The position numbers were made by a program, and so were the translations under genes. From Escherichia coli (GTDB lineage Bacteria > Pseudomonadota > Gammaproteobacteria > Enterobacterales > Enterobacteriaceae), in the NCBI RefSeq assembly GCF_048403405.1, contig NZ_CP183129.1: a stretch of DNA of 64,000 nt; one strand, written 5' to 3'. The notes below the pieces were generated by a model, which did no database searches, was not told the DNA's origin, and was given only the letters and a program-made list of their open reading frames with translations. How positions within the stretch are numbered: position 1 is the first letter of the stretch; the number at the start of each line of letters is the position of its first letter. Shown piece by piece: positions 27,438 through 27,673 of this stretch.

Positions 27438-27488
27438 TTAGTTCCCCGTCCTGAATCTTGAGAAACAGAATTTTGTGCTGTTATTCAT
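27438..27488 (-). CDS. ilvX: small protein IlvX (16 aa)
   Basis: Hand-translated minus-strand [19 protein letters not shown] with SD gaggag upstream, between attenuator and ilvG. Confidence 0.5.
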
Positions 27489-27518
27489 TGTCTGCTCCTC
27501 AGTTATGTTTTTAAGGTC

Positions 27519-27552
27519 AAAAAAAACCCCCGGACCTTTCGGTGCGGGGGTC
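27519..27552 (-). terminator. ilvGMEDA attenuator (Rho-independent terminator)
   Basis: Minus strand reads cccccgcaccgaaaggtccggggg followed by an 8-T run, downstream of the ilvL stop. Confidence 0.85.
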
Positions 27553-27574
27553 TTAGTTCGTTAAGGCTTGATCT

Positions 27575-27673
27575 CTAAGCCTTTCCTCGTCCAAGTGCAG
27601 CCCCGCACGGTGGGATAATAATCACCACCACGCTAATCACGACCAGGCTAATCACTCGTAGAAGGGCTGTCAT
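27575..27673 (-). CDS. ilvL: ilv operon leader peptide IlvL
   Basis: Hand-translated 32-codon ORF MTALLRVISLVVISVVVIIIPPCGAALGRGKA, rich in Ile/Val/Leu regulatory codons. Confidence 0.9.
   Translation of the reverse strand: MTALLRVISLVVISVVVIIIPPCGAALGRGKA

Follow-up and report, generated by a model that had tools for sequence, protein, structure and literature searches.

The ilvLXGMEDA control region in an Escherichia coli genome and the evolution of the small open reading frame ilvX

We analysed a region around positions 27,438 to 27,673 of a 64,000-nucleotide stretch of Escherichia coli DNA (contig NZ_CP183129.1; the whole stretch is called the window below). This region is almost certainly the 5′ control region of the ilvLXGMEDA operon, the well-known branched-chain amino acid attenuation system, with the leader peptide gene ilvL, the terminator, the small open reading frame (ORF) ilvX and ilvG all encoded on the minus strand. 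The ilv leader is one of the founding examples of multivalent transcription attenuation. Earlier work has described ilvL, the attenuator, ilvX and ilvG+ alleles, and the region is intact, ordinary and already known, so that one more copy in an E. coli genome is nothing new. What the comparison adds concerns ilvX, which is real and selected as an ORF, while the peptide it encodes is weakly constrained and the gene does not evolve like a protein. Since its start, frame, stop position, a nucleotide core and possibly a hairpin sequestering its ribosome-binding site are conserved, the data suggest that being translated matters more than the peptide. A concrete and testable idea for the role of this small protein follows from the way in which its start, frame, stop position and RNA context have been kept.

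An initial annotation, made from the sequence alone, had described IlvL, the attenuator and IlvX as intact. All three were found at exactly the coordinates it gave, with ilvL and ilvX identical to K-12 and the family models above their cut-offs; the strand, which is minus, had been left unsaid. The main features are the following (SD, Shine-Dalgarno sequence).

27575..27673, minus strand: ilvL, 32-codon leader peptide MTALLRVISLVVISVVVIIIPPCGAALGRGKA, stop codon TAG (ORF list; NCBIfam NF007744; identical to K-12 b3766; RefSeq in an identical strain)
27614..27664, minus strand: regulatory codon run, ilvL codons 4-20 LLRVISLVVISVVVIII, with 14 of the 15 Leu/Ile/Val codons (translation and residue counts)
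27601..27608, minus strand: antiterminator 5′ segment GUGCGGGG, ilvL codons 22-25 (truncated-transcript folding; pairing in the alignment)
27519..27554, minus strand: attenuator, an intrinsic terminator hairpin (10 + 3 bp, GAAA loop) followed by T8 at 27519-27526 (folding; pairing in 114 sequences)
27459..27501, minus strand: candidate hairpin with the ilvX AUG in its loop (single-sequence minimum free energy fold, 11 bp; last stem of the RF02744 consensus)
27495..27500, minus strand: ilvX SD, GAGGAG, 6 nt ahead of the ATG at 27488 (sequence; anti-SD duplex of −8.4 kcal/mol)
27438..27488, minus strand: ilvX, 16-codon ORF, stop codon TAA at 27440-27438 (sequence; NCBIfam NF038286; RefSeq; K-12 b4669)
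27443..27447, minus strand: ilvG SD, GGGGA, within ilvX codons 14-16 (sequence; anti-SD duplex of −7.0 kcal/mol)
25789..27435, minus strand: ilvG, acetolactate synthase II catalytic subunit, 548 amino acids, intact (ORF; NCBIfam NF006524; the 2 bp absent in K-12 are present)

The ilv leader and its attenuator

Curated models cover all three proteins (IlvL, IlvX and IlvG) as well as the RNA. The leader peptide scored 81.9 bits against the equivalog model for the ilv operon leader peptide (NF007744; cut-off 59). The leader had been described as dense in Ile/Val/Leu codons, and indeed 15 of its 32 residues are branched-chain amino acids (4 Leu, 5 Ile and 6 Val), all within codons 4-20 except for Leu27. 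A review gives the same composition for the ilv leader, a 32-residue peptide with 15 branched-chain amino acids (PMC6123439). Alignment with K-12 MG1655, which the initial annotation had proposed as a check, gave no nucleotide difference in ilvL and none in ilvX. The K-12 counterpart (b3766, b4669 and b4488; NC_000913.3 3950322-3952204) has the same terminator, antiterminator and spacing, and the gene order hdfR, maoP, yifB, then ilvL-X-G-M-E-D is common to K-12 and the window. The sole difference within 27438-27724 is T versus C at 27501, directly 5′ of the ilvX SD. In contrast to the 290 bp holding the leader, the attenuator and ilvX, which carry only this one substitution, the adjoining 85 bp of promoter and upstream sequence (27725-27809) carry 10 of the 15 K-12 substitutions located upstream of ilvG.

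At the RNA level, the region 27455-27744 (minus strand) matched the full Rfam model RF02744 (positions 1-300) with 158.8 bits against a gathering threshold of 88 (E = 3.7e-49). The match to this family (Rev39_5p_UTR) runs from the ilvL coding region across the terminator into the start of ilvX. It differs from the family as described in that the Rfam text refers to a 5′ untranslated region of soft-rot Enterobacteriaceae only and makes no mention of the ilv attenuator, and several outer pairs of the model are broken in the E. coli sequence. By alignment, RF02744, described only as the soft-rot ‘Rev 39 5′UTR’, corresponds to the ilv leader of soft-rot enterobacteria, and a relabelling would be possible.

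The terminator reads AAGACCCCCGCACCGAAAGGTCCGGGGG followed by T8 in the DNA and AAGACCCCCGCACCGAAAGGUCCGGGGG followed by U8 in the transcript (27554 to 27519). It folds with −21.6 kcal/mol, compared to −11.2 ± 2.5 kcal/mol for dinucleotide shuffles (z = −4.2; none of 200 shuffles was as good), and the entire 201-nt leader with −71 kcal/mol (z = −4.1). The range given earlier for a GC-rich hairpin with a T-run, 27519-27552, covers this terminator, which we place at 27519-27554. In an alignment of 114 sequences, 96.2% of the cells of the terminator stem are paired, with a CG to AU exchange in 12 sequences. A consensus promoter and terminator scan of the minus strand did not report the attenuator, probably due to a C-C mismatch in the stem, and the hairpin was found by direct folding.

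The segment GUGCGGGG is perfectly complementary over 8 nt to CCCCGCAC in the 5′ arm of the terminator (27542-27549). Standard pairs are present here in all 114 aligned sequences, which come from at least seven Enterobacterales families; no covariation was seen in these sequences, both arms being invariant. With the terminator and the 8-bp antiterminator pairing both found, the description of the region as a textbook attenuation system was borne out. To model the competition between the two structures, we folded the RNA as it is before the 3′ arm of the terminator exists, with the position of the ribosome masked. In these truncated-transcript folds, the terminator 5′ arm pairs with GUGCGGGG fully when the A site is at codons 2-12 and 16-18 and partly at codon 19, codons 13 and 15 being exceptions. 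With the A site at codons 20-22 the 5′ arm is unpaired, and at codons 25-28 almost unpaired; the ribosome footprint there lies over GUGCGGGG.

Two aspects of the folding detract from its value as support for attenuation. Folds of the complete leader give the terminator at any ribosome position, which is uninformative and is the reason why truncated folds were used, and the truncated model predicts the antiterminator also when the ribosome is absent or positioned at the stop codon. This crude folding model illustrates the classical kinetic model and does not prove the mechanism. The case for attenuation therefore rests on the K-12 literature (Lawther and Hatfield 1980; Nargang et al. 1980, as cited in PMC6123439 and PMC9299463), the leader sequence being identical to that of K-12. 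Nothing in the evidence speaks against the identity of the region or against the attenuation mechanism.

According to this mechanism, transcription would start upstream of ilvL and a ribosome would translate the 32 codons of ilvL. With an ample supply of charged tRNAs for Leu, Ile and Val, it would pass the 15 regulatory codons and cover GUGCGGGG, so that the terminator and its U8 tract form and the polymerase stops. If any one of these amino acids runs short, the ribosome would stall in codons 4-20, leaving GUGCGGGG free to pair with CCCCGCAC in the antiterminator, and the polymerase would read into ilvX-ilvG-ilvM-ilvE-ilvD-ilvA. On the read-through RNA, ribosomes may load at the strong ilvX SD, translate the 16 codons across the ilvG SD and end 2 nt before the ilvG AUG. 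The attenuators of trpL, hisL, leuL, thrL and ivbL likewise combine a small leader ORF, in which codons for the products of the pathway abound, with mutually exclusive antiterminator and terminator structures and an intrinsic terminator ahead of the first structural gene. The ilv leader differs from them in being multivalent, one leader sensing three amino acids, and in the second small ORF, ilvX, located between the attenuator and the first enzyme gene.

Two further hairpins were found within and next to ilvL.

27605..27633, minus strand: ilvL-internal hairpin GCGUGGUGGUGAUUAUUAUCCCACCGUGC, a candidate protector or pause hairpin (−14.1 kcal/mol; minimum free energy fold of the leader; RNAalifold consensus)
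27563..27583, minus strand: small hairpin around the ilvL stop codon AAGGCUUAGAGAUCAAGCCUU (minimum free energy fold of the leader; RNAalifold consensus)

The 3′ end of the ilvL-internal hairpin overlaps the antiterminator segment, and its invariance over the loci is partly imposed by the pattern used in the locus search described below. Published K-12 Term-seq data (PMC7815308 supplement) place two 3′ ends within ilvL, at window positions 27589 and 27595 (K-12 3950406 and 3950400, respectively), which sit 10 and 16 nt downstream of this hairpin. Such spacing is in keeping with a transcription pause, stabilised by the hairpin, that would hold the polymerase in step with the leader ribosome. 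In the stop-codon hairpin, all seven pairs are changed on both sides somewhere in the 114-sequence alignment, for example from GC to CG or from CG to UA. The complementarity of the ilvL SD region to the anti-SD is almost nil (−0.9 kcal/mol at 27677-27693, minus strand, compared to −8.4 kcal/mol for ilvX and −7.0 kcal/mol for ilvG), and the region upstream of the ilvL start is A-rich instead.

Conservation and evolution of ilvX

The 16-codon ORF had been noted as having its own SD just before ilvG, which agrees with the GAGGAG located 6 nt from the ATG and with a stop codon 2 nt ahead of the ilvG ATG at 27435 (TAA-CT-ATG). The peptide is the same as K-12 YP_002791259.1 and WP_001387183.1. It was duplicated to reach the 20-residue minimum of the model search, and the two concatenated copies scored 79.7 bits against NF038286 (peptide IlvX), about 40 per copy versus a cut-off of 32, with each copy matched over residues 1-16. 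In K-12, ilvX (b4669) has reportedly been annotated since the work of Hemm et al. in 2008. The small peptide has been detected in K-12 (Hemm et al. 2008 and 2010, as cited in PMC9299463), and a translational fusion of ilvX was expressed (PMC9299463). The same source lists ilvL, ilvM, ilvE and ilvD as targets of GcvB. For the ilvX fusion it reports unchanged expression, and we rejected GcvB targeting of ilvX.

To obtain homologous loci independently of ilvX, we used a DNA pattern anchored on the Val-Ile-Pro core of ilvL, with one genome per species. This gave at least 120 loci, and 115 of the loci listed include the ilvG start. In 81 of these 115, representing 69 distinct sequences, the ORF begins with ATG or GTG, is precisely 16 codons long and terminates precisely 2 nt ahead of the ilvG ATG. 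The carriers belong to the Enterobacteriaceae, Erwiniaceae, Pectobacteriaceae and Yersiniaceae and include Escherichia, Enterobacter, Klebsiella, Kosakonia, Pantoea, Erwinia, Pectobacterium, Dickeya, Brenneria, Serratia, Yersinia (with Y. pestis) and Rahnella. In Citrobacter and Salmonella ilvX starts with GTG, and in Hafnia alvei and H. paralvei it is separated from ilvG by 3 nt. In other genera the SD is conserved as GAGGAG or AAGGA. The initial annotation had named a lack of conservation in related genomes as grounds for doubting the mini-ORF; its frame, SD and stop position instead recur across five Enterobacterales families.

The ORF is absent from all sampled Morganellaceae (Photorhabdus, Xenorhabdus, Proteus, Providencia, Morganella and Moellerella) and from the sampled Edwardsiella and Budvicia, whereas ilvL, the attenuator and ilvG are retained in these loci. 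Those from Photorhabdus are L003, L010, L020, L042, L049, L057, L082, L083 and L093; further loci without ilvX are L041; L045, L110 and L116; L061, L064, L097 and L109; L022 and L101; L014; L021 and L067; and L013 and L044. Within the Enterobacteriaceae, Pluralibacter (L015 and L113) and Cedecea colo (L108) have lost the start codon, and Kluyvera genomosp. 3 (L085) has a disrupted frame. Thus, ilvX is broadly conserved yet was lost several times.

In Superficieibacter sp. 1612_C1 (L107), the ilvX stop is changed to the sense codon TCA, the only such case among the sampled sequences. Two codons further on, the ORF reaches the TGA of an ATGA motif shared with the start of ilvG, so that the close stop-start layout is retained.

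We then compared the way in which ilvX changes with that of ilvG. Column entropies at codon positions 1, 2 and 3 were 0.63, 0.96 and 0.92 for ilvX, versus 0.08, 0.10 and 1.12 for the 16 opening codons of ilvG from the same set of genomes. The ratio of nonsynonymous to synonymous substitution rates (dN/dS), determined over 33 phylogenetically independent species pairs, was 0.60 for ilvX (dN 0.13, dS 0.22) and 0.02 for ilvG (dN 0.013, dS 0.64). Accordingly, the IlvX peptide changes ten times faster than IlvG, while its silent sites change three times slower. None of the 69 distinct ilvX sequences has an in-frame stop, compared to 66 and 51 of the 69 in the other two frames, a test which is weak by itself as a column-profile model already gives a probability of 0.87 per sequence for the frame to be open. 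The stop codon keeps its position while switching in identity, with 66 TAA, 6 TGA, 3 TAG and a single sense replacement (p ~0.0002-0.009). Within the ORF, conservation extends to first, second and third codon positions alike in the nucleotide core AGCAYAAAATTCTGT (codons 4-8), and the most variable stretch of the region is the spacer directly upstream of the ilvX SD.

Possible roles of ilvX

Among the explanations considered, the one we place first, at somewhat less than an even chance, is that ilvX acts by being translated at its position and/or through the surrounding RNA and hairpin, and not through its peptide. Its layout resembles that of translationally coupled upstream ORFs, such as the ATGA overlap of ilvG and ilvM: only 2 nt separate the stop from the ilvG AUG, ilvX contains the ilvG SD, and the stop position is kept while the identity of the stop codon varies. 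A difference from coupled upstream ORFs is that the strength of the ilvG SD is unchanged in species without ilvX.

The RNA component of this reading is the candidate hairpin at 27459..27501. Its 5′ arm UGAGGAGCAGA (27491-27501), which holds the ilvX SD, pairs with its 3′ arm UCUGUUUCUCA (27459-27469), which corresponds to ilvX codons 7-10. In the 114 sequences 74.6% of the cells of this helix are paired, compared to 45-55% for slid partners and 70.3 ± 0.5% for shuffled ones, and its covariation score is 0.221 versus 0.180 for shuffles (0 of 500 reach 0.221), with a slide of −2 giving 0.200; both the pairing and the covariation counts are inflated by the derivation of the hairpin from one of the aligned sequences. 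One of the pairs is changed from A-U to G-C in nine sequences, which by hand reading of the alignment, not by computation, are those of Photorhabdus, where the ORF is lost. The RNAalifold consensus did not contain the helix over the ilvX SD, either on an ungapped block of 69 sequences or on the 114-sequence alignment, and the helix was therefore specified and counted explicitly. Overall, the hairpin is a moderately supported candidate.

In a more specific form, which is possible but on the whole doubtful, ilvX would be a positional upstream ORF in a conserved hairpin that sequesters its SD, and would provide a second control layer after the attenuator, acting on the supply of ribosomes to ilvG or on the access of Rho to the 139-nt gap between ilvL and ilvG. 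If true, species without the ORF, such as Photorhabdus, would keep the hairpin.

Several observations weigh against a role for translation at this position and for the hairpin. The ilvG SD is no weaker where ilvX is present (−6.49 kcal/mol with ilvX and −6.52 kcal/mol without; Mann-Whitney p = 0.52), and since it is equally strong in both cases, ilvG is not visibly dependent on coupling. The covariation of the hairpin is modest, and the count of pairs with changes in both arms falls short of significance (48 of 500 shuffles). Because several lineages lost the ORF, ilvX is dispensable at least there. Finally, Cys8 is invariant, and Ser10 and Arg11 are held through synonymous codon changes (e.g. 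CGA and AGA for Arg11), a pattern that hints at some selection at the level of the peptide.

This last point leads to the second explanation, that IlvX is a functional peptide of 16 residues, for instance a modulator of an ilv enzyme or a regulator, with selection on its amino acid sequence. The detection of the protein in K-12 mentioned above is in line with this, as are the family model curated by NCBI, the use of both Cys codons for the invariant Cys8 and the recurrence of the pattern x3-S-[IT]-K-[FSC]-C-x-S-R over five families. However, a dN/dS of about 0.6, compared to 0.02 for ilvG, and second codon positions as variable as third positions speak against it. In codons 4-8 the third positions are equally conserved, and the same nucleotides are found in Photorhabdus, which lacks the ORF, so that constraint on the nucleotides explains this core at least as well. 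Moreover, the ORF was lost independently in the Morganellaceae, Edwardsiella, Pluralibacter, Cedecea colo and Kluyvera genomosp. 3. We consider a functional peptide unlikely.

A third explanation takes the nucleotide core CAGCAYAAAATTCTG within ilvX as a putative DNA site for Lrp, with the ORF being incidental. The core is conserved at all three codon positions, as a DNA site would be, and positions 27466-27480 match the consensus YAGHAWATTWTDCTR, which reportedly goes back to Cui et al. 1995, with two mismatches. That consensus is too degenerate: the window contains 78 matches with at most three mismatches, compared to 67.8 ± 8.7 expected by chance, a number not distinguishable from chance. 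Reviews, including PMC6123439, do refer to interactions of Lrp with DNA in the ilvGMEDA leader region (Rhee et al. 1996) and to repression by Lrp. Yet a DNA site leaves the start codon, the SD, the open frame and the switching between stop codons unexplained, and we regard this explanation as improbable.

It is less probable still that ilvX is a fortuitous, functionless ORF whose conservation reflects the ribosome-binding site of ilvG: its last three codons do overlap the ilvG SD, its peptide is weakly constrained and some lineages lack it, but its conserved and correctly spaced SD and its ATG lie 40-65 nt upstream of the ilvG ATG, outside any ilvG ribosome-binding site, the ATG is replaced only by GTG (in Citrobacter and Salmonella), the stop is swapped for other stops in nine sequences of several genera and for a sense codon once, no other part of the region varies as much as the spacer upstream of the SD, and detection of the protein is reported in the literature (PMC9299463). 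Our approximate ranking thus runs from translation at this position or the hairpin, through a functional peptide and an Lrp site, to a functionless ORF.

ilvG and the region in other E. coli genomes

The initial annotation had called ilvG functional. The gene encodes an unbroken protein of 548 residues that matched the equivalog model of the catalytic subunit of acetohydroxy acid synthase II (AHAS II; NF006524) end to end, over residues 1-547 of 548, with 1073 bits against a cut-off of 738, and ‘functional’ is to be understood as deduced from intactness and family match. The K-12 gene lacks 2 bp at the position corresponding to 26458-26459, is frameshifted and terminates after codon 327. The window carries both base pairs, like most E. 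coli other than K-12, and ilvG therefore reads through to its full length. Its TGA overlaps the ATG of ilvM (ATGA). As ilvG is intact and followed by ilvM, the strain should, judging by its sequence, make a valine-resistant AHAS II and itself be valine-resistant, unlike K-12. An unbroken ilvG seems to be the norm in E. coli, with K-12 as the exception, and in every sampled row of the E. coli matches RefSeq annotates a full ilvG coding sequence.

A 521-nt query covering the region had matches with at least 95% identity in 5,425 of 5,426 complete E. coli genomes, and the 91-nt ilvX segment showed the same distribution. The sequence of E. coli strain 7/2 is 100% identical, and there RefSeq annotates ilvL, ilvX and ilvG at exactly matching positions, with hdfR, maoP and yifB to one side and ilvM, ilvE and ilvD to the other.

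In the chicken isolate E. coli ECN24 (NZ_CM176598.1), the transposase of ISApl1, an IS30-family element, lies between the ilv attenuator and ilvX (L123:2973-3947). The insertion point corresponds approximately to window positions 27515 to 27500, and ilvX-ilvG are thereby cut off from the promoter and the leader.

Outside the control region, a match to the Rfam model Bp1_162 at 29529-29573 (minus strand) stayed below the threshold (24.5 bits versus 50). It marks a GC hairpin that lies where yifB and maoP converge, with A- and T-runs on either side, and is most likely a bidirectional intrinsic terminator.

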